In this document: piece by piece, positions 2,266 through 57,718 of the stretch
Layout: each line of letters starts with the position of its first letter
Numbering within the stretch: position 1 is the first letter of the stretch
Virus record (IMG/VR): IMGVR_UViG_3300032265_002746
Strand: one strand, 5' to 3'
Length of the DNA stretch: 64,000 bases
Origin: a virus
Taxonomy: Duplodnaviria > Heunggongvirae > Uroviricota > Caudoviricetes
Notes under the pieces: generated by a model
Database searches by the model: none
What the model saw: the letters and a program-made list of their open reading frames with translations, nothing else
What the model was told of the DNA's origin: nothing
Program-made: the position numbers and the translations under genes

Positions 2266-3948
2266 CTAGAACGTGTTGAAATCTGCAACTAAAATTTTTC
2301 CAAAAAATTCCTGCCTCAGAATTAGCTTTGCATAACGGGTCATTAATCCCTTACTAAGCGCAAATGTCTTAGGATCGTACACAAGTGGAGTAGAAATCAA
2401 TGGAATGTATGGAGCAAATACCCCACCGCTATCCAAGTAATTAGCTCCCTTGAAGCCCATGATGATAGCATTCTCTTGCATATAGGCGTTTACAAGTATT
2501 TTGAATTTACCATTCAATTTACCAGCTTCTTTACTACCGAATGCATATTCCATTTTAGAACCGTCAGTTCCAGCAGCGTAACCAGCGATTGACTCGATGA
2601 TTGCAGCAACTTTTGGAGATACCATTGCAACGTTAGCTTCACCTCTTTGAGTTTTAGCGTGGATTGCACGTGATACTTTTTGCATTTTAGTACCCAAAGT
2701 TTGGAACCAGTCTTGTTGGCTATTGTAATAACCACCTGCAGCAGCACCTACTTGAGAGAATGTGTTAGTACTAGAGTTGAATATTGTGTTGTTAACTGCT
2801 GACCAAACCTCTACAGTTTGAACTGCTGCTAAATCAATCATATCAATCAATTCTAAGTCAATTTCACGAGAAATGTACTCACTCAACAAACTTGTAGCTT
2901 CAGCTTCGATATCAATGCTTTGGAAAGCGTTGTAATCTTGTTGAGCTTCTTGAGTGTATGAGTATTTCAACTTACGAGTCTTGGCAGTGATACTTACACT
3001 TGTAGGTGCGATATCAATTTCAGGAATTGAATTACTACCTGTCAATGGAGTGTTAGGAGTGTCTTCGAAGTCACCACGGAAGTTACCGTTAGTTTGTACT
3101 GAGTAGTAAGAAACTACACTACCTGTAGGAGTAGTTGTACCAGATTGAACTGAGATACTACCTGTTACTAGGATACTTAATTGGTCAAAAGTACTATTGT
3201 AAGAAGTAAACTCAGGGTAGATTGTAGCTTCAGAAACTTGACCTAAAGAACCTGAGAATACGAATGATCTTACTGCAGTTGCATCAAAGTTAGTAAGGAT
3301 AGCAGATGCACTAGCAATAGTTATTTTACGTAGACCGTTAGCAGCTACTGATGCAGATACGTTAGCATTGTAGTTAGTGTCTGCGTAAGAAGCTGTTGTT
3401 ACTGTCATTGATTGTGAAGGGATAGTTGCGATGTACTCATTGATTGAGAAACCGAACTTACCAGCACCATACAAACCACCAAATGGATCAACACCTGGAG
3501 TGTTAGTAGTACCGTATACGCTTTGACCTAAGTTAAAACGGCTACCGGCTGTACCACCATTGATGTTAGGTTGTTGGTTGTTGTATTGGAAGTCTAGGTA
3601 GAATACAAGACCGTAAGGCATGCTCATTGGTTGTGTACTCAAGAATTCTTTTGCAGAAATCTCAGCAAATACTTTACGAACCATTGGCAAAACGATACCT
3701 GCCCATTGTTCACCAGCTCCTGGAGTGAAGTTAGCTCCACCTTTGTTGGTTGTTTGTTCTTCTACAAGGATTTGCTTGTTTTGGTTCTCAAGCAAAAGAG
3801 CCATGTTTCTTTTTTCATATGGGTGTTGCTTCATAGCTGTACCGTCTAATAGACCGGTAGGTGCCCATTTTTGTTCTAATCTTGAAAGGACTTGCATTTT
3901 GTCCTCCATGTTTCTAGATGATTCTAGTAATTTTGAGATTGTACTCAT
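2266..3948 (-). CDS. Major capsid protein (T4 gp23-like)
   Basis: C-terminal block ILVNAYMQENAIIMGFKGANYLDSGGVFAPYIPLISTPLVYDPKTFALSKGLMTRYA parallels T4 gp23 YIDQYA..YFTVGYKG..DAGIYYAPYVAL..DPKNF..MGFKTRYG. 560 aa. Followed by a terminator. Confidence 0.85.
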   Translation of the reverse strand: MSTISKLLESSRNMEDKMQVLSRLEQKWAPTGLLDGTAMKQHPYEKRNMALLLENQNKQILVEEQTTNKGGANFTPGAGEQWAGIVLPMVRKVFAEISAKEFLSTQPMSMPYGLVFYLDFQYNNQQPNINGGTAGSRFNLGQSVYGTTNTPGVDPFGGLYGAGKFGFSINEYIATIPSQSMTVTTASYADTNYNANVSASVAANGLRKITIASASAILTNFDATAVRSFVFSGSLGQVSEATIYPEFTSYNSTFDQLSILVTGSISVQSGTTTPTGSVVSYYSVQTNGNFRGDFEDTPNTPLTGSNSIPEIDIAPTSVSITAKTRKLKYSYTQEAQQDYNAFQSIDIEAEATSLLSEYISREIDLELIDMIDLAAVQTVEVWSAVNNTIFNSSTNTFSQVGAAAGGYYNSQQDWFQTLGTKMQKVSRAIHAKTQRGEANVAMVSPKVAAIIESIAGYAAGTDGSKMEYAFGSKEAGKLNGKFKILVNAYMQENAIIMGFKGANYLDSGGVFAPYIPLISTPLVYDPKTFALSKGLMTRYAKLILRQEFFGKILVADFNTF

Positions 3949-10771: not shown

Positions 10772-13735
10772 TTAGTCTTTGTCTAACAAATTACCCTCGT
10801 CTAACATAGATAACTCTTTAGGCTCTCCTCCTTCAAACAGTTGGACTTTCTTTCCAGGTTTAATTTTTTCTAAGTCAGACTTCTTCAACCCTTCATTATA
10901 GATACCCTTTCTAGGATTAGGTCTTAGGCTGTCTTTCTTGTACTTATCTCGCATTTCTTTCTTCCCAAAAGGATCCCTTCCAGCAAAAGAACTGTCTGTG
11001 CCGTAAGAAGAAGCGTGTAATACCGGTCTGCCTATGACTTTTTTCTCATCATATCCATCTGGTACGCTTTCTGGGCCTGAAGCATTGTTTTTGTAAATAG
11101 ATGCTAGGTCATGTGGTGTTCCATAAGATACTCCGGATAAAGCTGGGTCATTACCTTCCTGCTCAATCTGAGTGTATCTGAATTTACGTTTAACATCTTC
11201 AGCTATAAGGTCACGCTCACGATTAATCTGGTCTTCACTCATCTGGAATATGTTATCATAAATCCAGTCTGTTGAGATAAAGTTCTTCTCTTGCATCTGA
11301 TTAGCTAAATCAACTTTTTCTTTCAATAAAGCAATACGTTCTTGCTCATGCAAGATAGAAGGGCGAGCAAGTGTTATGTCAAAATTGGCAAGGTCTGAAT
11401 CCTCATACCCTAATAAGGTAAGGTGTACCTGTGCTATTTTTTGTAGTTGAGATACAGTCAATCTTTGGATATACTCTATTTGGCGAGACCAACTCAAGCT
11501 TAATCCAGATAAGGTAGATTTACCATTTAACTCATCAGAATAGTTCAAATAAGCTTTTGGAATCTTTAAAGCAGAGAACATCTTATTGATGAAGTAATTC
11601 ATATCATCCATACCTGTATACTCCAATCCTTTAGCTGTATCAATTCTGGTTAGGTTGTCACCATTACGGACTGGAATATGGAAATCCTCCAATAGGTTCA
11701 TCATATTGAACTTATAGTTGAATTGTCCGGTTTTGTGGTCGAATAGGGGTGTACGCTTTTGATTGGAAATGTGCTTTTGCATCATGGCATCTACCTCATT
11801 TGGAGGAAGATTACCCACATTATAGTAGAACACCCTCTTTTCGGCAGACTTTGTAACACGATGGGTTACCGCAGCATCCTCCATCATGGTATATGCCTTG
11901 AATAATTTACGTCCAGGTTCAAGCCAGGAGTTATGTACTACTATCCCATTAGCAATAAAGTTGTGATTTTCAGACTCCACGTGTATGTCGTAGGTCAATT
12001 CTTTGTCAGACTCTTCTATGGCTGTAATAGGCTCTAAAATAACGTTTTCAATACCTTCTTGTTTATACTTCTTTGTTTGGATTAATTTCCTACCTTCCAT
12101 ATAAAAGCTCAAAAGGTAAGCTTCACTTTTATTATATATTTTATCTCCAAAAACAACAGTTGTCCTCTCTTTTCTTTTACGTATTTTGCCAGATTTTATT
12201 TTTAATCTTTGCAGTAATACTTTCAAATCCTCTAACATTTCTTTGTTAACAAGCTCAACTGTATACCTGTTACAGCCCCATTCATCTATATTGGTACTAC
12301 CGTCAGCATCTACTAATCCTTCTATAAATGCCAGTTGTACGTTTTCAGGCTGCTCATATATCCAAGATGGAAATCTCTTAGTTTTTGCTTTTCCTGTAAA
12401 TCCGTTATTTTTAAGGATAACATTAAGGGCTTTTGAATGACAGAAAGCTTGAGAGCTTATATTTGTATTTGTTATTTTTTTATTATGCTCACCACATATT
12501 TTTCCTGAATACTTTTGTAATATACCTTTGTACTTTTGATTGATGTCATCATGAACACCTTGTGCAAACGCAACGCAAGATTTAGATAACCACCCATCCC
12601 CTAGCATAAAGCCAAATAATCTTGCAAAGTCTTCTTCGTATGTATTTGGTATGTATTCCAATAACTTTTGCCAGCCATTTTTCTTATTTTCATTAGAAAC
12701 ATCTTTATTGATTTTGCTTTCAATATTAGGTTGTTTAAAAGAATAATTGGTAATAGCTACTAGGTCTTTTATGTTAAGTTCTTGTATCTGTTTGTATTTT
12801 AATACTCCGTCCGAAAATACAAGAATGGGGTGTTCTGCACTGCCTTCTATGAAGTTATTTTTAGTTGAAACTTTGTAGATTTCCTTTTCTCCAGAACACA
12901 CTTGCTTCAATACTTTAGTTAATTCATACTTATCTTCCTTGGTATTGTATGACCAAACCTTATCGCCTTCCTGTATTTTATCAATTGTATTTACTCCAAA
13001 TTCTGTCTCAACGTAGGAGTTACCTTTTAGACATCTGCCATATGGTAAAAAGTTACTATCTTTCATCAGCCTAAAATGTGCTATCTCATAGTTTTCATAA
13101 ATCCTATGATTACGGGATTGATTAATTGAGCTTACACCTCCCATGATTGCTCCTGGGTCTTGTATAAACCTGACATATTCCCCATTATTTGCATCTAAAC
13201 CCTCTTCTCTCACCATTTCATAAGGAGACAAGGATTTTACCCCATAAACTCCGAACTGATCTGAAAGACGTAACAAAAGGAAGAAATCTCCATATTTGCA
13301 AAAGGACCTTATCCACATCGGTAAATTGAATTCAACATTCAATACGTTGTAAAAAAGATTATACAATTCATCCTGGATGTTCTCAGAAGAAGACCTTATA
13401 GATAAGATTTCGTTATTCATTTCATTAACCTGTGTAGCTTCCTCACAAAGGATATCTAAGGCCGGTGCCACTAGGGCATCTAAGTCCATTGCTTCATAGT
13501 CTAGGTATAGTTGTGCCCTTGTTATCTGCATCCCATAGCCTATACCCGGTTCTATCAGGGAGCTATTGGAATATAATCTAGTATATCTATTTGCAAGCGT
13601 GTTTTGTTGTAAGTTTCCGAATGCTTGTATACCATTAAAATCGGATACTTTTAAGTATTTACCTCCTGCTCTTTTGATTATGGTGTCAGTAGTAAACTTC
13701 TGTTTTAATTGTGCAAATAGAGCTTTATTAGCCAT
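10772..13735 (-). CDS. Portal protein (T4 gp20-like) interrupted by an in-frame intein
   Basis: Exteins match gp20: MEDAAVTHRVTKSAEKRVFYYNVGNLPPNEVDAMMQKH parallels T4 [37 protein letters not shown], and RNGDNLTRIDTAKG parallels RDGKAVTEVDTLPG. 987 aa, of which about 368 aa are intein. Confidence 0.85.
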   Translation of the reverse strand: MANKALFAQLKQKFTTDTIIKRAGGKYLKVSDFNGIQAFGNLQQNTLANRYTRLYSNSSLIEPGIGYGMQITRAQLYLDYEAMDLDALVAPALDILCEEATQVNEMNNEILSIRSSSENIQDELYNLFYNVLNVEFNLPMWIRSFCKYGDFFLLLRLSDQFGVYGVKSLSPYEMVREEGLDANNGEYVRFIQDPGAIMGGVSSINQSRNHRIYENYEIAHFRLMKDSNFLPYGRCLKGNSYVETEFGVNTIDKIQEGDKVWSYNTKEDKYELTKVLKQVCSGEKEIYKVSTKNNFIEGSAEHPILVFSDGVLKYKQIQELNIKDLVAITNYSFKQPNIESKINKDVSNENKKNGWQKLLEYIPNTYEEDFARLFGFMLGDGWLSKSCVAFAQGVHDDINQKYKGILQKYSGKICGEHNKKITNTNISSQAFCHSKALNVILKNNGFTGKAKTKRFPSWIYEQPENVQLAFIEGLVDADGSTNIDEWGCNRYTVELVNKEMLEDLKVLLQRLKIKSGKIRKRKERTTVVFGDKIYNKSEAYLLSFYMEGRKLIQTKKYKQEGIENVILEPITAIEESDKELTYDIHVESENHNFIANGIVVHNSWLEPGRKLFKAYTMMEDAAVTHRVTKSAEKRVFYYNVGNLPPNEVDAMMQKHISNQKRTPLFDHKTGQFNYKFNMMNLLEDFHIPVRNGDNLTRIDTAKGLEYTGMDDMNYFINKMFSALKIPKAYLNYSDELNGKSTLSGLSLSWSRQIEYIQRLTVSQLQKIAQVHLTLLGYEDSDLANFDITLARPSILHEQERIALLKEKVDLANQMQEKNFISTDWIYDNIFQMSEDQINRERDLIAEDVKRKFRYTQIEQEGNDPALSGVSYGTPHDLASIYKNNASGPESVPDGYDEKKVIGRPVLHASSYGTDSSFAGRDPFGKKEMRDKYKKDSLRPNPRKGIYNEGLKKSDLEKIKPGKKVQLFEGGEPKELSMLDEGNLLDKD
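11930..13033 (-). mobile_element. Intein with LAGLIDADG homing-endonuclease domain inside the portal gene
   Basis: Starts with Cys in R|CLKGNSYVETEFG, has a block-B-like SAEH, two dodecapeptide motifs LFGFMLGDGWLS and AFIEGLVDADGS, and ends VVHN|S. Residues 235-602 of the ORF. Confidence 0.8.
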
Positions 13736-13767: not shown

Positions 13768-15408
13768 TTAACTACCAAGTACCCATGAATAATCCTCCAT
13801 TTCTCCTGTTACAGGGTTCGGCATTAGGTAATTACTGGCCTTCCTGTTCATACTACTATGGATAACAGTAGCAGGTGTTGTTGATTTTATAGCTCCCAAT
13901 ACAGCTCTTTGCATGTCTGTGCTATTTGCTGCATATGCCAATGCAGTACCTCTCAGATAAGTGCCTATCGCTAATGGAATCAACAAGTCATCATTAGAAC
14001 CTGATTTAGCTGCAGGTTTTGGGCCTTTCCAAACAAATGCCCTCATTTCCGCATAAGTCCTCTTAGACCTTATTTTTATAGATTTTTCTTCTACAGCAAT
14101 CTTGAATGATTGTAGCATCGGTATTCTGGTAGAGGTTGATGTGGTAAATCCAGGAGTCATTTTGTCCTCATCCATATACTTATTAAGGTATTGACTAACA
14201 TTGGTTGTATCACCCTTGAACGACTTATATACATTTCTGTATCCAGAATCGGTAACGTAACTACAGGTAGTGTTACCTATACCTGTATTTTCAGCTATCA
14301 ATAATGCGCTGTTGTATTCAAGGCAGACTGATACCGCAAAGTTGGCTAGTTCTTTAGGTCCCATGTCTCCCATATATTCACCTATTTGATCACCAGTTAG
14401 CAAATCTACTATCTGAATGGTAGAATAGTCTAGTCCATCGCCCCTAGAGGTATCTAGTATAACTGCACAGTTGGTTACTTCTTCTGGAAATTTCCATATC
14501 CAGAATGCATTGTCCCTTCCCCTCATTTGTACCGGTTCTTCTAGGTTGACTTTTACCCAATCTAAATCTTCTGGTTCAAAGTATGTATTACCAGAACTAA
14601 TCATTTCGGCATCACACTCTTGTTTTGCAAGACGTTTACCAAGCTCTTGGTCTTGTCTATCTCTCCAATCTTGTGTATGCTCTGGGTGAACTCTCCAGTC
14701 TAGCTTTATGGGTAGGTATTCATTGTTACCTAGCTCTGCTTCTGAGTATAAATCTGCGAATTTATTCTCTGTACCTTCTGGAGTTGATAATACTATACAC
14801 TTACCTCCTGTCGCTAGTGTTTGCTGAGCTGCTGCATAAGTCTCCTCTGCGTCTTCCACGAATGCAAACTCATCATAAATAAGAAAAGAGGCTGTCTTAC
14901 CTCTAGCGGAGTTCTTAGCTCCGGATATTACCTCAATCTTTGATCCGTTAGATGATACTACTTTCTTTTGGTTTTCTTCTTTGGTAGTTGAATTGGACAA
15001 TTCAATCATCCATTTAGGTAACTCCTCAAAAGCAAACTTAAATTTATCCATTACGGCTTTAGCCATATTGGTAGTTGGAGCCATACAGAGTATTGAAGAG
15101 TCATTCTTGAATAAGAATAGCCACAATGCATATGCTGAAGCTAGTGTGGTTACACCTAGCTGACGGCTTTTAAGGATAATGATGCGGTCTCTGGTGTGCA
15201 TCAGATGTAAAAGCTTTCTTTGGAAAGGGTATAATTGGAATTTACTTCTACCTCCACTTGTGGTCTGAATCCACACATAGGTTAATATGAAGTATTCAGG
15301 GGATTCCATACACTTCTTAAACTCCGATAAAGCTAATTCTTTCAGGTTTACAGGTCTAACTGCCGGTGTATTAGTTGTTTGTGTCGTTTTCTTAGCTGCT
15401 TTTGTCAA
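13768..15408 (-). CDS. Terminase large subunit (T4 gp17-like)
   Basis: YPFQRKLLHLMH..LKSRQLGVTTLASAYALWLF parallels T4 gp17 YQRDMLKIMHD..NLSRQLGKTTVVAIFLAHF. Walker B LIYDEFAFV. C-terminal nuclease-like region. 546 aa. Confidence 0.85.
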   Translation of the reverse strand: MTKAAKKTTQTTNTPAVRPVNLKELALSEFKKCMESPEYFILTYVWIQTTSGGRSKFQLYPFQRKLLHLMHTRDRIIILKSRQLGVTTLASAYALWLFLFKNDSSILCMAPTTNMAKAVMDKFKFAFEELPKWMIELSNSTTKEENQKKVVSSNGSKIEVISGAKNSARGKTASFLIYDEFAFVEDAEETYAAAQQTLATGGKCIVLSTPEGTENKFADLYSEAELGNNEYLPIKLDWRVHPEHTQDWRDRQDQELGKRLAKQECDAEMISSGNTYFEPEDLDWVKVNLEEPVQMRGRDNAFWIWKFPEEVTNCAVILDTSRGDGLDYSTIQIVDLLTGDQIGEYMGDMGPKELANFAVSVCLEYNSALLIAENTGIGNTTCSYVTDSGYRNVYKSFKGDTTNVSQYLNKYMDEDKMTPGFTTSTSTRIPMLQSFKIAVEEKSIKIRSKRTYAEMRAFVWKGPKPAAKSGSNDDLLIPLAIGTYLRGTALAYAANSTDMQRAVLGAIKSTTPATVIHSSMNRKASNYLMPNPVTGEMEDYSWVLGS

Positions 15409-15550: not shown

Positions 15551-16309
15551 CTACAATTCAAAATTGTTTATATGTTGAAGGGTTCCGTCCTCAATGTAGT
15601 AGCAAGAATGAGCTTCTACTTTTGCTTTTTCTTTACCTTTCTTAGCTACTTTTTTGTTAAACCACTTTTCAGTCCTTTGATCACTGATATTACTGGATAT
15701 CTCTATGTACTGACCTTCAAATTTTCCTTCACGAGCTGCTGCACACTGTTCAAGAAATTCAGATTTATGGTATAAAGTTGAGGCTGTTACTAAACAGCCT
15801 TTTGGTTTCAACTTGTCTTTTAATCTTTGTTGTGTTTCTTTTAAGGTTGTTACAAAGTCTGCATTCTCTATTATAGCTAGATCTATTTCGTCTTCTGGTA
15901 TTTCTTCAGATGGACCTATTATGTACAGCTTAGAGCCATTCTTTAGCTCAATAAAGAATGGTGTTTGTGATTCTATAAGTGCAAAGATAGGTAATTTATT
16001 GAAAGAATACATTAGTAGGTCAATAAATTCTTTGGCTATTATCTTAGTAACACTTGTTACTACTATTTTTGTGTTCGGTCTGAATACCATCATCCAGGCA
16101 GAGTATGCTGTAAGCATGGTAGTTACACCCACTTTTCTGGCAGAGTTGATGAGTAGTTCACTTGTTTTTGGGATTAATCTAGTGATCTGCCATTGGTATT
16201 TTTTAGGGATTATCAATTCAATCCTGTGGCCATAACTCATCACTTTCCATTCATTTAAAAAGAAGTCTTCAAATGATGATGAACGTTTTTCATAAAGGCT
16301 TTGACTCAT
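15551..16309 (-). CDS. Terminase-ATPase-like paralog (N-terminal ATPase domain only)
   Basis: LINSARKVGVTTMLTAYSAWMMVF and LAIIENADFV parallel the Walker A and B regions of the adjacent terminase. No nuclease domain. 252 aa. Confidence 0.6.
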   Translation of the reverse strand: MSQSLYEKRSSSFEDFFLNEWKVMSYGHRIELIIPKKYQWQITRLIPKTSELLINSARKVGVTTMLTAYSAWMMVFRPNTKIVVTSVTKIIAKEFIDLLMYSFNKLPIFALIESQTPFFIELKNGSKLYIIGPSEEIPEDEIDLAIIENADFVTTLKETQQRLKDKLKPKGCLVTASTLYHKSEFLEQCAAAREGKFEGQYIEISSNISDQRTEKWFNKKVAKKGKEKAKVEAHSCYYIEDGTLQHINNFEL

Positions 16310-24171: not shown

Positions 24172-24492
24172 TTAAAATTTATAATTGTTAAGATAATGCA
24201 GTGTTTTCATGATACGAATGTACTCATTCTTATCCTCAGAGGTGCAGTCAGGGTTATTGATTATACCAACGTACTTCTTCATCTGTGAGTTATAGTAATC
24301 TACCTCTGCTAGTATTAAAGCTGCTACGTATACATTGTCAAATGGCTCTTCAACCTCAACACAATGCATAGGTATTACCTCGGTCCATTTACCGAACTTA
24401 AGCGTGTAAGCTTTTTTTCTTTCTAGATTGTAGTACCTCATACGGTATTTACCGTTTGGGTCTTTAAATCTTTCGTTTATAATGACGTTCAT
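24172..24492 (-). CDS. Hypothetical protein
   Basis: 106-aa ORF overlapping the primase start. Confidence 0.5.
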   Translation of the reverse strand: MNVIINERFKDPNGKYRMRYYNLERKKAYTLKFGKWTEVIPMHCVEVEEPFDNVYVAALILAEVDYYNSQMKKYVGIINNPDCTSEDKNEYIRIMKTLHYLNNYKF

Positions 24493-25463
24493 ATCTTGTT
24501 TATTTTCATCTTCATCAACTTGCTCGTTGTCAGTGGACTTACCTGTTGTATCAGCTTAGTAAAGTCCTCAAAAGTCATAGACCCTGGGTCTTTCTCGTCT
24601 AATTCAACTAGATACACTGTCTTACCCATTTCCATCAATAGCTGACAATTAGCTAATGATTCCTTCAATGCATCTGAATCTAGGCAAAGATACACCTTTT
24701 TTGATTTGCAGGTCAATAATTTTTTCATTAACTCGGGTTGTATGACTTTACCCAATAGCGGTATACAGTTACGCTTAATGGTAAACATATCAAATACACC
24801 TTCACAAAGTATGATAGGCTTAGACCAGTTAATCATTGACTCAAAAGGGATAATATCCCTAGAGCATTCTGGAAATTCATACTTGACGAAGGTCTCATCA
24901 GATAGTGCTCTACCTATCAGGTAATTAACCTTCATAGATTTATCGTAGGATGGAATGACAATACGGTTACGGTACCGGCCTTCTTCACAATATCCTATGT
25001 TCCATTTAATGATGTCATCTTCACGTACATTACGCTTCTTAACATAAGCTTTAGCATGACGAAGCTTAAGATCATGTTTAGGTAGTTTGCCTTGTACAGA
25101 TTTGAATTCGGCTGGGAGCTGGCCTGAAAATACACCTTTTACCTCTTTGGGTTTATGTATAGAGGTATCTGTGTATTTTAGTATTTCTTTGAGTTCATTG
25201 AACCTTTGTTCTGTAGCACCTATCTTTTTAAGTAGGTTGTAAATAGACTTACCTTTCTCACCACAAGACCAGCAGTGGTAGATGTTGACAGGTTTTCCAT
25301 CTTCTATTATGGTTTCCATATCAACCTCTAGTTTCTTCTGACCGGCAATTCTAGAAGGCCTGTTTGCACATCCTACAAATGGGCATAGGTATTTTCTGTT
25401 TGATGAAGAGGAACCGGTACCTGTGCCTAATACTGAATCAAGAAAGGGAATTAGACTACTCAT
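24489..25463 (-). CDS. DNA primase (zinc-ribbon plus TOPRIM; gp61/DnaG-like)
   Basis: Zinc ribbon CPFVGC..CWSCG. TOPRIM Glu in ILCEGVFD and DxD in VYLCLDSDALKE. 324 aa. Confidence 0.7.
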   Translation of the reverse strand: MSSLIPFLDSVLGTGTGSSSSNRKYLCPFVGCANRPSRIAGQKKLEVDMETIIEDGKPVNIYHCWSCGEKGKSIYNLLKKIGATEQRFNELKEILKYTDTSIHKPKEVKGVFSGQLPAEFKSVQGKLPKHDLKLRHAKAYVKKRNVREDDIIKWNIGYCEEGRYRNRIVIPSYDKSMKVNYLIGRALSDETFVKYEFPECSRDIIPFESMINWSKPIILCEGVFDMFTIKRNCIPLLGKVIQPELMKKLLTCKSKKVYLCLDSDALKESLANCQLLMEMGKTVYLVELDEKDPGSMTFEDFTKLIQQVSPLTTSKLMKMKINKI

Positions 25464-46070: not shown

Positions 46071-46733
46071 TTATTTTTTAGTTAATCTTAAATCACCCAT
46101 AGATTCTATCCTAGCTGACATAGAATCTGCTTGATGAATGATATAAGGCAGGTTACTGTGTAATTTGTATTCGGGTGAATGTGAAATCAAATAAGACTTG
46201 TTACCTTCATCGTACAGACCGGCCTGAAGCTTAATAGAAAGATACTCAGTTTCAGATACCTCTATTCCATGCTGCATAAGCAGGAATATAGTCCTGTCAT
46301 GATCCTTCATAAAAGATAGCTTAGAGTTGAAACCATAAACTTCACCTAACTTCTCAAGTCTCCACTTATCCTTCTGCTCTATATAGAACTCATGTTGATC
46401 ATCACCCATCTTACCTAAGTCGTGAGTTAAGCATACAAAAGTCAATTCTTCTATGCTGAAGTCTATCTCTGCACCCTGCTTACTCCATACTTTGGTGAGA
46501 GATACAGCTGCATCATACACATTAAGAGTATGTTGTACGAACCCTCCTACATAAGCACTATGATAAGATACTTTAGATGATGCCGGCATAAGGGCTAACC
46601 TGTTAGCATATTTTTCAAATAAGTCTGAAAGCTTATTCCATCTGTTTTTTTGCTCTGGATTCTCCGGACAGAATTGTTTAGCTAAATCTGTGAATCTTTC
46701 CCAGTTCTGTTCAATTTTCTTTTCGTCAATCAT
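46071..46733 (-). CDS. HD-domain phosphohydrolase
   Basis: H..H (YHSAYVGGFVQH), HD (CLTHDLGK) and downstream D (IHQADSM) form the HD motif set. 220 aa. Confidence 0.65.
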   Translation of the reverse strand: MIDEKKIEQNWERFTDLAKQFCPENPEQKNRWNKLSDLFEKYANRLALMPASSKVSYHSAYVGGFVQHTLNVYDAAVSLTKVWSKQGAEIDFSIEELTFVCLTHDLGKMGDDQHEFYIEQKDKWRLEKLGEVYGFNSKLSFMKDHDRTIFLLMQHGIEVSETEYLSIKLQAGLYDEGNKSYLISHSPEYKLHSNLPYIIHQADSMSARIESMGDLRLTKK

Positions 46734-46906
46734 AAATGTAAATTTTAAGTTGTTTCTAAATTAAGTTTTAAATAAAAGGCCTCAGAGTGGACACTCATTG
46801 CCTTATGTAATGCAAAGGTATAACAAATAATTGAATATTTTACAAATAATTTTTTTAGGTTAATTATTCATACTATATTTGCATCATATCTAAAATAGAA
46901 TATAAC
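46734..46906. promoter_or_regulatory. Divergent promoter / strand-switch region
   Basis: AT-rich 170-bp gap between the last minus-strand gene and the first plus-strand gene. Confidence 0.4.
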
Positions 46907-47152
46907 ATGAACGGCACACTTAAACCAGGATATAAAATCTTAAAAACAAACGGTATATCATTCTCGATAATGCCATCAGAAGGCAGGATTACAGTCCCAC
47001 CATTATTGAACTTCAAAGAATTCCTAGAAGGTAAGGAAGGCTACGTAGTATGGAGTGATAAGAAGCAAAGTCTTATGTTCCCAGGAGAGAAATTAAAATA
47101 CACCGGCAAAATAATTCTAAAAAGTGAAAGTAAAGTTCCAAGTGAGATATAA
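46907..47152 (+). CDS. Hypothetical small protein
   Basis: 81-aa ORF, first gene after the strand switch. Confidence 0.45.
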   Translation: MNGTLKPGYKILKTNGISFSIMPSEGRITVPPLLNFKEFLEGKEGYVVWSDKKQSLMFPGEKLKYTGKIILKSESKVPSEI

Positions 47153-47309
47153 CGGTTACAGACAGCCGGTAGTGTCCATATTTGAGGTAAAGGCACCTAA
47201 GGGTGCCACAGAGCTTCAGAAGAAGAACCTAATAGACAAGTTCTTCAAGGATAATATAAAACAAGATGGGATTATCCAGAGATGGCCCTATGAAATAATC
47301 GAAAAATAA
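47124..47309 (+). CDS. Hypothetical small protein
   Basis: 61-aa ORF. Confidence 0.35.
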   Translation: MKVKFQVRYNGYRQPVVSIFEVKAPKGATELQKKNLIDKFFKDNIKQDGIIQRWPYEIIEK

Positions 47310-47545
47310 TGAATATAGATTTCAAATGGTTTCGGGACAATCAAAATATATACCACTCCATATTGGTTGATCAGACTATGGAACCTAAGTTCTGTTACTC
47401 AATCTCCCAGTATATTTCAGGTAAGGATAGTTTTGAATGGATAGATATAGTATCTTCATCAGACCTGTACAGAACATACGAAGAAGCAGAGATTGCCTGC
47501 TTAAATGCAATTTATGAAAATAGATTTGGTAGTGTAAATAATTAG
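47309..47545 (+). CDS. Hypothetical small protein
   Basis: 78-aa ORF. Confidence 0.4.
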   Translation: MNIDFKWFRDNQNIYHSILVDQTMEPKFCYSISQYISGKDSFEWIDIVSSSDLYRTYEEAEIACLNAIYENRFGSVNN

Positions 47546-47655
47546 TATTACTTTTGCCTTATATTTATTATTAGTACCGTAAGCAGACGGACGAAGGTAA
47601 AAAAATTAAGAGCGTAACATACTTTTAACATAGTAGGAGAGAGATACAAACTACT

Positions 47656-47703
47656 CCGAAGCCCTGACTCTAGCTGCTTCTAGAATTCGGGGCTTTTTCT
47701 TTT
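47656..47703 (+). terminator. Intrinsic terminator (compound hairpin plus T-run)
   Basis: AAGCCC..[TCTAGctgcttCTAGA]..GGGCTT followed by TTTTCTTTTTC. Confidence 0.5.
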
Positions 47704-47709
47704 TCTACT

Positions 47710-48534
47710 ATGACGCAATTAGCAAAATACCGCACTCTGGCTTTCATCACTCTCATCAAACTTGAGAGGAAGAACTCCGTTGTGGATATGGATGCTCATC
47801 TAGGAGACTTCGCAGCTAAGATTGGTATTTCATACAACTCATATAAGAAGTACCGGAAAATATGCCTAGAACTAGGATTATGCAAAATAGAAAACGGTCA
47901 CGACAGATACATCGATATCCAACAGTGCATCCAGGTACTGGGGCTCACCAAGATAAACAAACATGTTCATTTCTTCAATAAATGTAAGCATGCAGACAGG
48001 ACACTCATCGGTGTCTACGATACCATAATAAAGGGTATCACCCTAAACAACTTCAAGCAACAACAGCATAACACAAATAAGAATAAGGATCTCAAGAGAG
48101 TTACTAAATTGATTCGTAAGAACAGAAATATAGCATCCGCTAAGGATAGAGCTATGGTCAAGCATATCACTAAGAATGCAAGGTACCATAACCTCTCTAC
48201 TTTAGAATACTGTGATAGTATCTTACTAAAAGAATTACAACCTACCGAGGATTCCATTAAGACAGGTAAGTATCATCTATCTAAGCTACTAGGGCTTTCT
48301 CCTTCTACAGGGATTAATCTCTTGAAGGATATGATAAAGGATAATACTGTCAAAAGGACAGTCATTAAGTTTAATGTATCTAAGTTAGGATATAGTAATG
48401 ACTCTTTTGACTTACTTAGGGCTAAGTATCCTAAGTTTACAGTATTACCTTACTCTGGGAATAAGTCCTTTAATGTGTATAAGGGAAGTAGAATTGAATT
48501 AATATCACAGGATCAGCAACTACATATGAGCTAA
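47710..48534 (+). CDS. Hypothetical protein
   Basis: 274-aa ORF. Confidence 0.55.
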   Translation: MTQLAKYRTLAFITLIKLERKNSVVDMDAHLGDFAAKIGISYNSYKKYRKICLELGLCKIENGHDRYIDIQQCIQVLGLTKINKHVHFFNKCKHADRTLIGVYDTIIKGITLNNFKQQQHNTNKNKDLKRVTKLIRKNRNIASAKDRAMVKHITKNARYHNLSTLEYCDSILLKELQPTEDSIKTGKYHLSKLLGLSPSTGINLLKDMIKDNTVKRTVIKFNVSKLGYSNDSFDLLRAKYPKFTVLPYSGNKSFNVYKGSRIELISQDQQLHMS

Positions 48535-49732: not shown

Positions 49733-50167
49733 ATGGCACTATTTGAATTAGAAGAAGTAGACAAAGGTAATTACTACGAAGTGAAGGTTATAAAATCTGG
49801 TGATATTTTTGGTAAATTTGCCCTAGATGTAGATGGTTGTTACGGCTTCTGGCCTGAGCCGGGTGAAGGTTGTTATAGTGATTATGTACTGCTTGAATTA
49901 GGTACTCTCCTGAAGAAATTGAATAAACCTTTTTATGATTCGGTAGACGAGTACTACAATTCCAATCGTGGAGGCTTTGGTGAATTAGAGCACAAAGGGT
50001 TTAAGGGTATTGCTGAGTATGATGAATCAGAGGAGTTGTGGCATGCTAAGGCAGTAGGTATAGATAGTGTGACATACATCAGAGCAGAAGGAGAATCCTT
50101 CGAAGAGTTGATAAAAGATTTTGAACAAGCAGTAGAAGATTATTTACAAACAATCGATGAATTATGA
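49733..50167 (+). CDS. Hypothetical acidic protein
   Basis: 144-aa ORF. Confidence 0.5.
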   Translation: MALFELEEVDKGNYYEVKVIKSGDIFGKFALDVDGCYGFWPEPGEGCYSDYVLLELGTLLKKLNKPFYDSVDEYYNSNRGGFGELEHKGFKGIAEYDESEELWHAKAVGIDSVTYIRAEGESFEELIKDFEQAVEDYLQTIDEL

Positions 50168-54925: not shown

Positions 54926-55143
54926 TGAAAAACAGGGTATTATTGACACATCTAATGCTAAACAATTTACCACATACAGAAATGAATGTACAAAGTTGGT
55001 CAGTAGGGAGTATAAAGACTAGGAATTATAAACTGGGTGAATACGAAGTCCAGGTGATTGAGTACGAAGGAATGCAAGAAATAAAAGACTATGACCTATA
55101 CATAAACGGTAAGTTTTTTAAAGGTGAGGATACCCCGAATTAA
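54925..55143 (+). CDS. Hypothetical small protein
   Basis: 72-aa ORF. Confidence 0.4.
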   Translation: MKNRVLLTHLMLNNLPHTEMNVQSWSVGSIKTRNYKLGEYEVQVIEYEGMQEIKDYDLYINGKFFKGEDTPN

Positions 55144-55185
55144 CAAGAGGTTAAATAGGCTAGTCAGGGGTGAAGGAGTTTAACA

Positions 55186-55213
55186 GGGGGACATAGTTGT
55201 CCCTTTGTTGTTT
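55186..55213 (+). terminator. Intrinsic terminator
   Basis: GGGACA-tagt-TGTCCC followed by TTTGTTGTTT. Confidence 0.55.
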
Positions 55214-55505
55214 AGTATAGTGAAGTGAGGGTATCTTGGCCGGTAGTTAGGGTAGAAGGGTTTAACCTTAGGTCCAGGGGGAAGGGCAGCCAGAGCAGAT
55301 CTTAGGGTTATTTTATATAATTATATATTTATATATTTTTTTAGATTTGGGGGATTTGGGGTGGGGTTAGAGAGGCAATCTGCTGGATTCCTCCAGCGAA
55401 ATTTTTTCGCTAGTTACGAAAAATCCAGGTTTTTTACGAAAAAAATAAAACGAAAACGATTGAAATTTACGATATTGGAAAAAAGCAAAAAAAAAGTTTG
55501 TCTAG

Positions 55506-55513
55506 TAACTTTG
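55506..55513 (+). promoter_or_regulatory. TAACTTTG, matching a Bacteroidetes-type -7 element (TAnnTTTG)
   Basis: Lies about 140 nt upstream of the 55651 gene in a structured leader. Confidence 0.25.
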
Positions 55514-55650
55514 CAACCCCTATCTTCGCCATGCCATACCATTACCCACTAAAAACACCCTTAAGGGGTGACGGGTAAAGTATTGCCCATACTTTTACAA
55601 TTAAAGTATGGTATTAATTAAAAGGCTATAATAGCCGCAAATTAAAAGTT

Positions 55651-56331
55651 ATGAATGAAGTAAAGAATGTAGTAAAAGAAGTAAGTAAAGAAGCTACAAA
55701 ACAAGTAAAAGAAGTGGTTAGTATTGAAACACTACTTAGTCGCTACCCTATCATTGAGACTGAAACCATAGAAAGGGAAACAGGTTTAAAGGTAGATGGG
55801 TTCGAGGGCTACAACTTAGTAAAAGAAGTGGTTAAAAGTAAAGTTACTAATATAGAAGGAAACAAGCTAGTAACCACTGAAACAGAAACGCAAACGGGGT
55901 TACTACTTAGAAAAGAAGGGGTTGAACCTATTAAGTTTGTAGGGGGCAATGATTATTTTTTGGACACTTCAACCAATACTTTTAAGAAGTATATTAATGT
56001 AGGGGGCAAGATTAGCGAAGCACTGACAGAAGGGGCGAAAAGTAAAGATGTAACAATTGCCAAAAAGGAAACTAAAGGCGAAATAAAGGGCGAGATATAT
56101 AGCCCTTCTTATTGCTTCAAAATAGCCCTTCGCAAAATGAAACAAAACGGCAAATTTGCGAAGCTATTTAGAAAGGGCGAAACATTAGACACTTTACAAT
56201 TGCCTACTATTTTACCCTATATAAATGCTGCACGTCGGGAAAGGTTTAACGGGGGCGAAACGGCTATTTTCACGCCTATTGCTTTTGTTGATTTTATTAC
56301 TAAGTATTTAAGTGACACGACTAACAAGTAG
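55651..56331 (+). CDS. Hypothetical K/E-rich protein whose 3' half carries GGGGCGAA-type repeats
   Basis: 226-aa ORF. The repeats encode GGK / GAK / KGEI / KGET / GGET. Confidence 0.45.
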   Translation: MNEVKNVVKEVSKEATKQVKEVVSIETLLSRYPIIETETIERETGLKVDGFEGYNLVKEVVKSKVTNIEGNKLVTTETETQTGLLLRKEGVEPIKFVGGNDYFLDTSTNTFKKYINVGGKISEALTEGAKSKDVTIAKKETKGEIKGEIYSPSYCFKIALRKMKQNGKFAKLFRKGETLDTLQLPTILPYINAARRERFNGGETAIFTPIAFVDFITKYLSDTTNK

Positions 56332-56690
56332 GGCGTAATTTTACCCCCCTTTACCCCTATGCAAAGTAGGGGGTTAATATCGTAATATTAGAGGGGGGCG
56401 AAGCCAAAGGGGATACCCTTAAACTGTTTTATTGACTATGTTTTGAATAGTCGGGGCGTAATGCCTTGTAAGTAATTTATAAGTAAAACGGGGCGAAGTT
56501 ATTTGACATAAATGTTTATTTTTTCGGGGCAAAGATATTTGCTTTATGTAGCTATTTATGTAATGAATACGAGGGGGCGAAGCTATGTATAAACGAAATT
56601 AAAATAAGGGTTAAAAGAATTATTAAATAGTCTTTTTTGTGGGCTGTTTTGGGCGTAATGCCTTGTAAGTAATTTATAAGTAAGGGCGTT
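55940..56690. repeat. Irregular array of at least 12 GGG(G)CRAA(G) iteron-like repeats, plus a 33-bp direct repeat
   Basis: GGGGCGAAG / GGGGCAAAG / GGGCGTAAT copies at about 55942, 56005, 56030, 56080, 56147, 56173, 56250, 56333, 56396, 56454, 56490, 56526, 56573, 56652 and 56686. GGGCGTAATGCCTTGTAAGTAATTTATAAGTAA occurs at 56453-56487 and again at 56652-56684. Confidence 0.5.
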
Positions 56691-57221
56691 AATCTAAGTT
56701 GTAAACATAATAGTAAAAATAAAAGTAGGTGTATCAGTACACATTGCTGAAGGGATACGTATGTCCCCTTCAGAAAAACTGTTTTATGTAATCCCTAATA
56801 AAGTACGTTGGTTATTAGATTAGGTATTGGAGTAGTAAATGAGTAGGTTTACATAAATAATCTATCTACCTTTACGTTTACTATGTTTGACCTCTGCATA
56901 TTGACCGTTCCCGAAAGGAGTCGTATGTATGTATTTTATCTCTAAACACTATTGGGATATGAACCACCTCTGTATGGATACAAGTGGTAAAGGAGATATT
57001 AATGGAACCATAGTTATAATGGTAAGGTAGTCAAGCAACTACAAAAATGTTAATACATAACACGTATGCAGTAACGTGTTTAATCCCCACAAGAAGGGTA
57101 AAACAACTATAATAAACTTGCAGTCGAAAGGCTACCTATGTGAGTAGGTTAATCCCCGCAAGAAGGGTAAAGGTTGTACAATAGACTTGTATGTCTGCAA
57201 ACATAGTGTAGTGGGCTTGCA

Positions 57222-57246
57222 GAGGGTTCGAGTCCCTCGCTACCAC
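57222..57246 (+). other. tRNA-like T-arm plus acceptor 3' strand (degenerate tRNA or fragment)
   Basis: GAGGG-TTCGAGT-CCCTC followed by GCTACCA-C. No convincing complete cloverleaf upstream. An upstream paralogous unit shares TTAATCCCCRCAAGAAGGGTAAA. Confidence 0.3.
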
Positions 57247-57358
57247 AAACCGCCTGGATTGAGCACTCTTGCCTTTCGGGTGTGTGTCCTCTTGTATACA
57301 ATTTACAAGGGGTGTTTTTAACAAGGGGGTACATTGGTTACTCCTTAAAAAGTTATGT

Positions 57359-57508
57359 ATGGAAAAAGGAGATTTATTTTTATTGATTGTAGGCACTGCA
57401 TTCTGTATATGGATGGCTAGTACTGTGATACCTGAATTGTGCGCTATAGCCACATTCGTAGGTATAGGTTGTGTATTTGGATGGAGAGACTTATTAAATA
57501 AAATATAG
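57359..57508 (+). CDS. Small membrane peptide (49 aa)
   Basis: MEKGDLFLLIVGTAFCIWMASTVIPELCAIATFVGIGCVFGW, preceded by AAAAAGTTATG-type context. Confidence 0.3.
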   Translation: MEKGDLFLLIVGTAFCIWMASTVIPELCAIATFVGIGCVFGWRDLLNKI

Positions 57509-57511
57509 TAT

Positions 57512-57718
57512 ATGAAAAAGAATTTGGATCTAAAGGGGTATGAGTACCCTGAGAAAATGTCATCTAGGGAAAAGACTGCCCTAGTGATAATCATTATAGT
57601 GATGATTGCGTTTACTTTAACTTCGTGTTCTTACCACGAGTACGATTGTGCGGCTCATTACCACTACCACGATTACTACAGTGGTAGGATTACTCCTAGG
57701 TACAAATTAGCCCACTAG
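57512..57718 (+). CDS. Small TM protein with His/Tyr-rich tail
   Basis: 68-aa ORF. TM helix ALVIIIIVMIAFTLT. Confidence 0.4.
   Translation: MKKNLDLKGYEYPEKMSSREKTALVIIIIVMIAFTLTSCSYHEYDCAAHYHYHDYYSGRITPRYKLAH

Follow-up and report, generated by a model that had tools for sequence, protein, structure and literature searches.

A type-specific array of G-rich motif copies across an orphan phage gene and its candidate role on a predicted structured transcript

Why should one short, G-rich motif, GGGGCGAAG, be packed in about 14 copies into 750 bases of a phage genome, partly within a small orphan gene and partly directly after it? The locus lies in a 64,000-nucleotide (nt) stretch of DNA from a tailed phage (IMG/VR record IMGVR_UViG_3300032265_002746), hereafter called the window, to which all positions refer unless another contig is named. 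A sequence-only reading of this DNA had described an irregular array of at least 12 repeats that starts inside an open reading frame (ORF) and runs into downstream non-coding DNA, and had likened it to the iterons of an origin-binding or partition protein. Comparison across six sequences, all from metagenomes, shows that the array is under nucleotide-level selection inside a coding gene and that it belongs to a cassette swapped as one piece between conserved flanks. We tentatively prefer to explain the copies as multivalent sites on a structured sense transcript to which a protein binds, most likely the basic product of the co-inherited ORF.

A motif array selected at the nucleotide level inside a coding gene

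The array and the gene that it overlaps comprise these features.

55651-56331, plus strand: orphan protein gene, 226 amino acids (aa), isoelectric point (pI) 9.1, with a basic C-terminal third
55940-56690, plus strand: array of GGG(G)C(G/A)AAG-type motifs, 9 copies by the strict and about 14 by the loose definition, every one in sense orientation, in the 3′ half of the ORF and the 360 nt downstream
55944, 56005 (GGGGGCAA), 56033, 56077/56089 (GGCGAA/GGCGAG), 56149, 56158 (GCGAAGC), 56175 and 56253, plus strand: starts of copies, first part
56331 (overlaps the stop codon), 56396, 56454, 56491, 56527, 56575, 56651 and 56684, plus strand: starts of copies, second part
56116-56172, plus strand: imperfect 15-bp inverted repeat in the ORF (arms 56116-56135 and 56152-56172; AAATAGC-CC-TTCGCAAA / TTTGCGAA-GCTATTT)
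56454-56486, plus strand: 33-nt perfect repeat, copy 1, with two small hairpins, both with GUAAU loops
56651-56683, plus strand: 33-nt perfect repeat, copy 2, identical to copy 1

The motif is clustered at this locus, and not spread uniformly over the window. All six copies of GGGCGAA in the 64 kb (1.47 expected on both strands) lie on the plus strand within 56033-56581, and nine of the ten window copies of GGGCG[AT]A fall on the same strand within 55940-56690 (56033-56657). The looser pattern GGGC[GA][ATG][ATG] occurs 14 times on the plus strand of 55940-56690 and never on the minus strand, against 0.22 expected (Poisson P ~6 × 10^-21). The core GCGAAG is found five times against 0.05 expected; GCGAAGC is present four times in the window array and six times in the related contig L001, and nowhere else in either sequence. 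The earlier count of at least 12 repeats therefore holds under the loose definition only (14 copies), the strict core giving 6-10. The extent of the array from the ORF into the DNA behind it was described correctly, as were the GAK, GEI, GET and GGET peptides of the in-ORF copies, which we read as EGAK, KGEI (twice), KGET and GGET.

The copies are irregularly spaced, 33-78 bp from start to start (78, 78, 65, 58, 37, 36, 48, 76 and 33 bp), without helical phasing and with no common multiple of 10.5. The repeat units of 33, 37, 37 and 46 nt are highly diverged, their common part being a 7-9-nt head, and Tandem Repeats Finder (TRF) did not detect a tandem array. The 33-bp perfect direct repeat reported earlier is present at 56454 and 56651, each a single base away from the coordinates first given (56453 and 56652); in L001 its two copies differ from each other, and all the changes keep pairing via G·U. 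Arrays of clustered regularly interspaced short palindromic repeats (CRISPR) have repeats of 24-40 nt and unique spacers of similar length. A CRISPR array was rejected here, as it had been before, because only the 7-9-nt core is common and the spacing is irregular. A canonical intramolecular G-quadruplex in the array was rejected as well, the G-tracts being at least 30 nt apart; 20 of the 77 plus-strand runs of four or more Gs in the window lie in 55167-56573. Nor do the reverse-complemented motifs serve as minus-strand Bacteroidota promoters (TAnCTTCGCCCC), since a single copy has a true TAnnTTTG box, this box is lost in L001, and -33 elements are absent.

The ORF, including its repeat-bearing half, is truly coding. 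Its closest relative, P0002 on contig L001, is 86% identical and is the sole close relative among 5.8 billion proteins, in which the whole family has six members. Between the two alleles the ratio of nonsynonymous to synonymous divergence (dN/dS) is 0.16 over the whole ORF and 0.09 over the repeat-bearing half, with a dS of 0.47; codon position 3 accounts for 58 of the 90 differences, and a 6-nt indel keeps the reading frame. Together the low dN/dS, the third-position excess and the in-frame indel identify the ORF as a gene, and so settle whether its repeat-bearing half, about which the sequence-only reading had been cautious, encodes protein. Read-through of the stop codon was rejected, as a TAA follows after 17 further codons.

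Within this gene the motif is imposed on codon choice. GGC and GGG make up 15 of the 17 glycine codons, against 20% genome-wide (P = 3 × 10^-9), the genes of this phage using GGT or GGA for 80%; in the L001 allele the figure is 16 of 18. Synonymous divergence between the alleles is 0.3-0.5 over most of the ORF and 0.06-0.12 at 56065-56184, where the copies are densest. From the codon bias and this local collapse it follows that the in-ORF array is not a by-product of a peptide repeat; it is under nucleotide-level selection. Motif copies are kept in L001, where one moves closer to the consensus (GGGGCAAAGA to GGGGCGAAGC) and the copy at 56033, outside the constrained zone, is lost. The inverted repeat at 56116-56172 lies inside that zone. 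A motif copy forms its 3′ arm and the sole inverted copy its 5′ arm, its fold has a z-score of -2.3, and in neither arm is there a substitution between the window and L001.

Cassettes swapped between conserved flanks, and the predicted transcript

Around the array and the ORF, the following features define the cassette, its flanks and the putative transcription unit.

55181-55210, plus strand: terminator hairpin of the upstream operon, from a terminator scan; invariant in four relatives and forming the 5′ edge of the conserved non-coding leader
55290-55480, unstranded: conserved leader with an AT-rich tract, G-tracts and TTACGAAAAA-type repeats, near-invariant in the window, L001, L124, L125 and L132
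55496-55513, plus strand: predicted Bacteroidota-type promoter of the ORF, a consensus match with the -7 box TAACTTTG at 55506-55513, the box being invariant in relatives
55520-55650, plus strand: structured 5′ untranslated region (UTR) with predicted hairpins at 55556-55570, 55573-55588, 55587-55611 and 55624-55636
56332-57017, plus strand: type-specific non-coding part of the cassette, 93-99% identical to L001, replaced by unrelated sequence in L124 and L125; read as a 3′ UTR or the body of a non-coding RNA
56344-56398, plus strand: three-way junction just 3′ of the stop codon, in which an outer helix P1 encloses hairpins P2 and P3
57018-57287, plus strand: conserved 3′ domain, common to all cassette types, with an acceptor-like stem (GGUAGU at 57026, GCUACC at 57240) and a T-arm (GAGGGTTCGAGTCCCTC, 57222-57238)
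57288-57320, plus strand: predicted intrinsic terminator closing the transcription unit, from a terminator scan, with three compensatory pair changes in L125 (57288-57312)

A single type-specific cassette comprises the ORF and some 700 nt behind it, and is exchanged as a whole between flanks that are conserved. The leader 55168-55708 (84% identical) and the segment 57018-57366 (91%) of the window recur in L124 and L125, two phages of IMG/VR; between these flanks L124 has an ORF of 174 aa and L125 one of 242 aa, and after each come about 650 nt of non-coding DNA that likewise differs. Homology among the three ORF types is distant (19-24% identity); they have K/V/E-rich N termini in common and, in two of the three, an FTP..FV..KY C terminus, and the proteins of every type are basic (pI 8.8-10.2). 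Only the window-type cassette has the GGGCGAA motif and the glycine-codon bias. A few small repeats peculiar to it occur in the L125 type, and two GGGCRAAGnnTGTCC copies in the L124 type, the sister cassettes holding at most two copies of any repeat. A diverged ORF followed by conserved non-coding DNA recurs in two comparisons: between the window and L001 the ORF has the dS given above but the following 1 kb is 93-99% identical, and in the independent pair L125/L132 synonymous differences of 0.6-0.9 in the ORF are followed by 97-100% identity after it. The ORF of the L125 type contains an in-frame 33-nt duplication (L125 7832-7897, in comparison with L132 and P0008; AARQPKEVKAV twice) that is absent from its close relatives P0008 and P0009, so the number of repeats in the K/V/E-rich N-terminal tail is variable.

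The conserved -7 box at 55506 and the terminator would frame a sense transcription unit of about 1.8 kb. Since the terminator covaries, sense transcription is expected to run through the array, and the region is probably transcribed as one RNA, judging by this terminator and the consensus promoter. The G-rich leader noted in the sequence-only reading is real, and near-invariant in five relatives. It contains an AT-rich tract at 55307-55340 that is length-polymorphic and lies 600 bp from the array, three G-tracts in series (GGGGGATTTGGGGTGGGG, 55349-55366) that resemble a G-quadruplex, and four TTACGA(A)n-type repeats; because the leader lies upstream of the predicted promoter, a 5′ UTR does not explain it. 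The 5′ UTR itself holds CTTCGCC, the reverse complement of the motif core, at 55524. We rejected this site as a cognate operator, as CTTCGCC and its variant CTTTGCC are not tied to cassette type (L132, with an L125-type cassette, has CTTCGCC). Downstream of the gene, 56332-57400 contains no credible ORF. A 152-aa minus-strand ORF at 57136-57594 was rejected as a hidden gene because it is not kept in relatives, and an internal promoter at 56882 was dismissed, since in L001 a deletion disrupts its -7 box.

Base pairs downstream of the ORF are preserved on the plus strand. For each pair of sequences we took the minimum-free-energy (MFE) structure of one and scored the effect of the other's substitutions on its pairs, with 5,000 permutations. 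Between the window and L001, substitutions in the 3′ non-coding region break 6 pairs on the plus strand against 15.0 expected, with none of the 5,000 permutations as low, and 17 against 15.3 on the minus strand; between L125 and L132 the counts are 3 against 11.0 on the plus strand and 10 against 13.4 on the minus strand. One-sided changes turn G-C or A-U pairs into G·U, so that pairing is retained on the plus strand only, which points to RNA. With pairs preserved on the strand predicted to be transcribed and with compensatory changes, the region appears to have the marks of a generic structured sense-strand RNA.

For the three-way junction, five sequences folded singly give the same architecture (z-scores -2.4 to -3.9), and across cassette types P1 undergoes compensatory changes (CCCCCC/GGGGGG, ACCCC/GGGGU, GCAGCC/GGCUGC), as do P2 and P3. 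The first non-coding copy of the motif supplies, with its G-run, the 3′ strand of P1. Other copies are predicted to fold on RNA into GGC-GAA-GCC or GGCG-UAA-UGCC mini-hairpins, and three take an extended GGGGCRAAG-NUAU-UUG form with a 4-bp hairpin; the GUAAU-loop hairpins of the 33-nt repeat persist in L001 through G·U changes.

Beyond the cassette, the 3′ domain combines its acceptor-like stem and perfect T-arm with a large branched insert between them. The insert includes a tandem duplication spaced by 69 nt (57080-57120 and 57149-57189; 41-nt core, 80% identical), of which L124 has one unit only. ARAGORN at default settings did not call a transfer RNA (tRNA) or transfer-messenger RNA (tmRNA) in this domain, and gave a degenerate tRNA-Met-like call at -ps80 only. 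Among 185,579 species genomes none contains the T-arm 25-mer exactly, and nothing therefore points to an origin from a host tRNA or an attP site.

Candidate ligand and competing explanations

In the explanation that we tentatively prefer, the sites would be type-specific, short and sequence-specific, consisting of a G-tract followed by GCGAAG(C) that can often form a GNA-triloop mini-hairpin. Their place would be the sense strand of one transcription unit, about 1.8 kb long, which begins with the conserved promoter and a structured 5′ UTR, continues with the gene of the small basic orphan protein and about 1 kb of structured non-coding RNA, and ends in the tRNA-like 3′ domain and the terminator. 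They would act multivalently, on RNA or co-transcriptionally, more probably than as double-stranded DNA iterons. Because the array is inherited with the overlapping ORF as one module, the ORF product, already named as a possible binder in the sequence-only reading, is the natural candidate ligand; its binding would give feedback control, sequestration or assembly of a ribonucleoprotein. Recurrence of the 9-mer in differing structural contexts argues for a sequence-specific ligand and not for structure alone. We infer that the motif is a binding site, which protein it binds and what its biological role may be.

Several observations weigh against this explanation. The structural contexts predicted for the motif copies differ, with none common to all, and conservation is not clearly higher in the motif cores than in the spacers. 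Taken alone, the array (392 nt) gives a marginal result in the permutation test (4 pairs broken against 7.4, P = 0.048) and an MFE z-score of -1.2 as RNA and -2.6 as DNA. The ORF, used as a control, also shows a plus-strand signal, a weaker one (26 against 35.4, P = 0.008), so the test has some background, and the covariation is thin, coming from six related sequences only. Phage mosaicism could be part of the source of the high non-coding identity and of the apparent constraint; segments neighbouring the locus range from 89 to 97% identity between these phages. Searched with Rfam models, including those of GOLLD, ROOL, tRNA and tmRNA, the whole window has no match at the gathering score, and 55000-57700 has three chance-level matches at E ≤ 10. 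The ORF product lacks a recognisable RNA-binding fold by Foldseek on an AlphaFold2 (AF2) model of low confidence, with a predicted local distance difference test (pLDDT) score of 36 from the single sequence and 54.6 from a 6-sequence alignment. No Foldseek match to the PDB fell below E = 0.07 with this low-confidence model, whose quality is too low to argue against any kind of nucleic-acid-binding fold. The protein likewise has no match in Pfam, PHROG, PADLOC, NCBIfam or PDB sequences, and an exhaustive HMMER search returned nothing beyond the query itself.

The iteron interpretation, in which the ORF product would be a novel initiator, copy-control or partition-type DNA-binding protein that binds direct repeats in and after its own gene as double-stranded DNA, seems to us somewhat unlikely. 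It accounts for direct repeats in a single orientation that overlap a gene and extend downstream, for the joint inheritance of ORF type and non-coding DNA, as expected of a protein and its cognate sites, for the basic proteins and for an AT-rich tract and conserved repeats in the leader. The locus resembles lambda ori in gene O and P1 incA or F incC downstream of rep, where same-orientation direct repeats also overlap or follow the gene of the presumed binder and protein and repeat types are co-inherited. Iterons, however, are 17-22 bp long, helically phased, adjacent to AT-rich unwinding elements and often to DnaA boxes, and their proteins are winged-helix. Here the core is 7-9 nt, 55000-57500 has no DnaA box within one mismatch, the AT-rich tract is distant, and no homology or fold of Rep, lambda O, winged-helix or ParB type was found with Pfam, PHROG, NCBIfam, PDB, HMMER or Foldseek on the low-confidence model. 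Families of ParA-type ATPases and centromere-binding proteins are absent among the neighbouring genes scanned, so that the locus does not look like a partition site. The phage is T4-like by its capsid protein, and T4 oriE is a cluster of direct repeats near small early genes that depends on an early promoter (PMC3016281). The oriE region (repEA/repEB) shares with the locus its T4-like phage, small early genes, clustered direct repeats and a promoter-dependent element, but its repeats, of undefined role, are evenly spaced 12-mers, in contrast to the unphased 33-78-bp spacings here (PMC3016281); there is no sequence or protein similarity between the two, and an origin role for the array is putative. 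The cumulative GC-skew minimum, moreover, lies at about 28-30 kb beside the primase gene and not at the array, and the iteron interpretation fits poorly with sister cassettes that carry so few repeats at the same locus, with spacers as conserved as motifs and with substitutions that respect plus-strand pairing only; it would leave the strand-specific conservation of the whole region unexplained. What stands of the sequence-only reading is a non-random, nucleotide-selected array that forms a module with its ORF; the claim of origin or partition iterons finds no support, given the short unphased core, the missing DnaA boxes and the lack of a Rep or ParB match. Should the array be an origin after all, no earlier one would have been described for this phage group, and the unexplained T4 oriE repeats would gain a useful parallel.

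An origin or priming element that needs no specific initiator seems improbable. Non-template G-clusters past a strong promoter could favour a persistent R-loop that primes the leading strand, as at T4 oriF and oriG, or GCGAAGC-type mini-hairpins on single-stranded DNA (ssDNA) could be primase entry signals. Nowhere else in the window are runs of four or more Gs so densely clustered, and those of the cluster are all non-template; the phage has a primase gene, and the plus strand folds better as DNA than its shuffles (z -2.6); T4-type origins consist of a promoter and a downstream unwinding region and may lie inside genes (PMC3016281). Mini-hairpins of the GCGNAGC and GCGNNAGC types are reported at replication initiation sites of phages G4, St-1 and alpha3 and at RSF1010 ssiA (PMC13037366), and GCGAAGC itself recurs in both arrays. 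Those cases, unlike ours, are single sites on ssDNA genomes or plasmids and not arrays in a double-stranded DNA myovirus, and most copies here are imperfect, with true GCGAAGC in only 4 of about 14. G-runs also occur upstream of the promoter, relatives with other cassettes lack both the G-clusters and the codon bias, so that G-clusters are not a conserved property of the locus, and an R-loop requires neither a specific 9-mer nor conserved helices containing G·U. Still less probable is an array without function of its own, left by internal duplications of a 33-46-nt unit together with a Gly-Glu-rich peptide repeat and conserved through recent recombination between phages. Units at 56489 and 56526, and at 56651 and 56684, do look like diverged duplicates, one pair is identical over 33 nt, and identity between these phages depends on the segment; yet such leftovers would not explain a glycine bias in two alleles so far apart in dS, a collapse of synonymous divergence flanked by normal values, the recurrence of the same pattern in a second cassette type, strand-specific preservation of pairs or the copy that approaches the consensus in L001. 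Least tenable of all is a module like a type III toxin-antitoxin system, with the ORF as endoribonuclease and the 33-46-nt units as a processed antitoxin RNA array. The units are on the same strand as the ORF and their lengths resemble those of ToxI, TenpI and CptI repeats, but they share only the short head, TRF finds no tandem array, they lie within the ORF and beyond its 3′ end, where such systems have near-identical tandem RNA repeats ahead of the toxin gene, behind a terminator, and neither PADLOC nor Pfam matches the ORF to ToxN, AbiQ or related families.

We found no known family to which the element belongs. Sponge RNAs of the CsrB/RsmZ type and the TRAP-binding trp leader bear many irregularly spaced copies of a short motif on one RNA strand, often in small hairpins. 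The array is like the former in its many irregular one-strand copies on what would be a longer structured RNA, and unlike them in that the motif is GGGGCGAAG and not GGA, copies overlap coding sequence and Rfam finds no match; CsrA is not known from Bacteroidota. GOLLD RNAs have one variable and one conserved end. As with GOLLD and ROOL, the locus is a long structured non-coding region of a phage, with or next to tRNA-like sequence, and has a variable and a conserved end; it differs in matching neither Rfam model even at E ≤ 10, in that the putative RNA appears to be fused to a messenger RNA (mRNA) and in a structure drawn from a handful of sequences.

A bolder form of the binding-site explanation, speculative and on present evidence doubtful, is that the locus represents a previously undescribed modular phage RNA-protein system. 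Its transcript of about 1.8 kb would fuse the mRNA of the orphan protein to about 1 kb of structured RNA with a tRNA-like acceptor/T-arm end, protein and RNA body would be ancient co-inherited allelic cassettes set between conserved flanks, and in the present allele the GGGGCGAAG array would be the protein's multivalent docking platform. If so, the modular cassettes would fit a specificity pair under diversifying selection, for example a counter-defence decoy against host systems that target tRNA or other RNA, or a player in competition between phages. If the preferred binding-site explanation is right, a small T4-like Bacteroidota phage spends about 2.2 kb, or 3% of its genome, on a conserved promoter, one orphan protein and some 1 kb of structured RNA, part of this unit being exchanged en bloc between relatives. 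The gene would be a rare case of a nucleic-acid motif visibly overriding codon choice, and the RNA a further example beside the few large phage non-coding RNAs known, none of which, to our knowledge, has an established function.

Relatives, look-alikes and phage context

Relatives of the cassette are rare. A scan of IMG/VR proteins with the ORF found none, scans with leader and T-arm patterns returned only two contigs that were already known, and a scan of a single metagenome returned one known contig. Homologues of the downstream 142-aa gene are on contigs too short to reach the cassette. A two-copy motif pattern has many chance matches in IMG/VR. A three-copy pattern gave 60 loci, rejected as unrelated: they are coding (collagen-like) tandem repeats of 18- or 27-nt period or giant-virus GGGGGCGAAGCCCCC hairpins. 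GGGGCRAAG at exact 18-nt or 27-nt periods occurs in unrelated phage contigs (L137, L185, L148, L015 and about 40 other IMG/VR loci), where collagen-like Gly-X-Y coding repeats are its probable source; searches by motif can be misled by it. In the giant-virus metagenome-assembled genome GVMAG-S-1101165-105 (L061, L031, L048), a palindromic hairpin, CATTGGGGGCGAAGCCCCC, stands at many sites of the contig; it uses the same GGGGCGAAGC core, in the form of a GAA-triloop hairpin, in an unrelated genome.

The window covers most of a tailed-phage genome of about 75 kb, with a G+C content of 36%, and its DNA has no similarity match in phage and plasmid collections. Structural and replication genes occupy the minus strand (major capsid 2266-3948, portal 10772-13735, large terminase 13768-15408, primase 24489-25463), and from 47.7 kb a plus-strand arm carries small genes, mostly without an assigned function. 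The best match of the T4-like capsid protein is that of Flavobacterium phage vB_FspM_immuto (45% identity), and TAnnTTTGC boxes stand upstream of many genes, which is compatible with a host among the Bacteroidota. The two arms are separated by a divergent promoter region at 46733-47710, where the sign of the AT skew flips and TAnnTTTGCAT boxes lie back to back at 46820 (minus) and 46874 (plus). On the minus strand, the adjoining ORFs 13768-15408 and 15551-16309 both match large-terminase PHROGs over overlapping parts of the profile and may be a split or duplicated terminase gene, and a gene for a GIY-YIG-type homing endonuclease (769-2043) lies about 220 bp from the major capsid gene. In the plus-strand arm, a 144-aa ORF (49733-50167) directly downstream of an ORF with a T5orf172/MUG113 domain matches, in its C-terminal part, a HicB-like antitoxin PHROG (phrog_9151, E = 4 × 10^-9).

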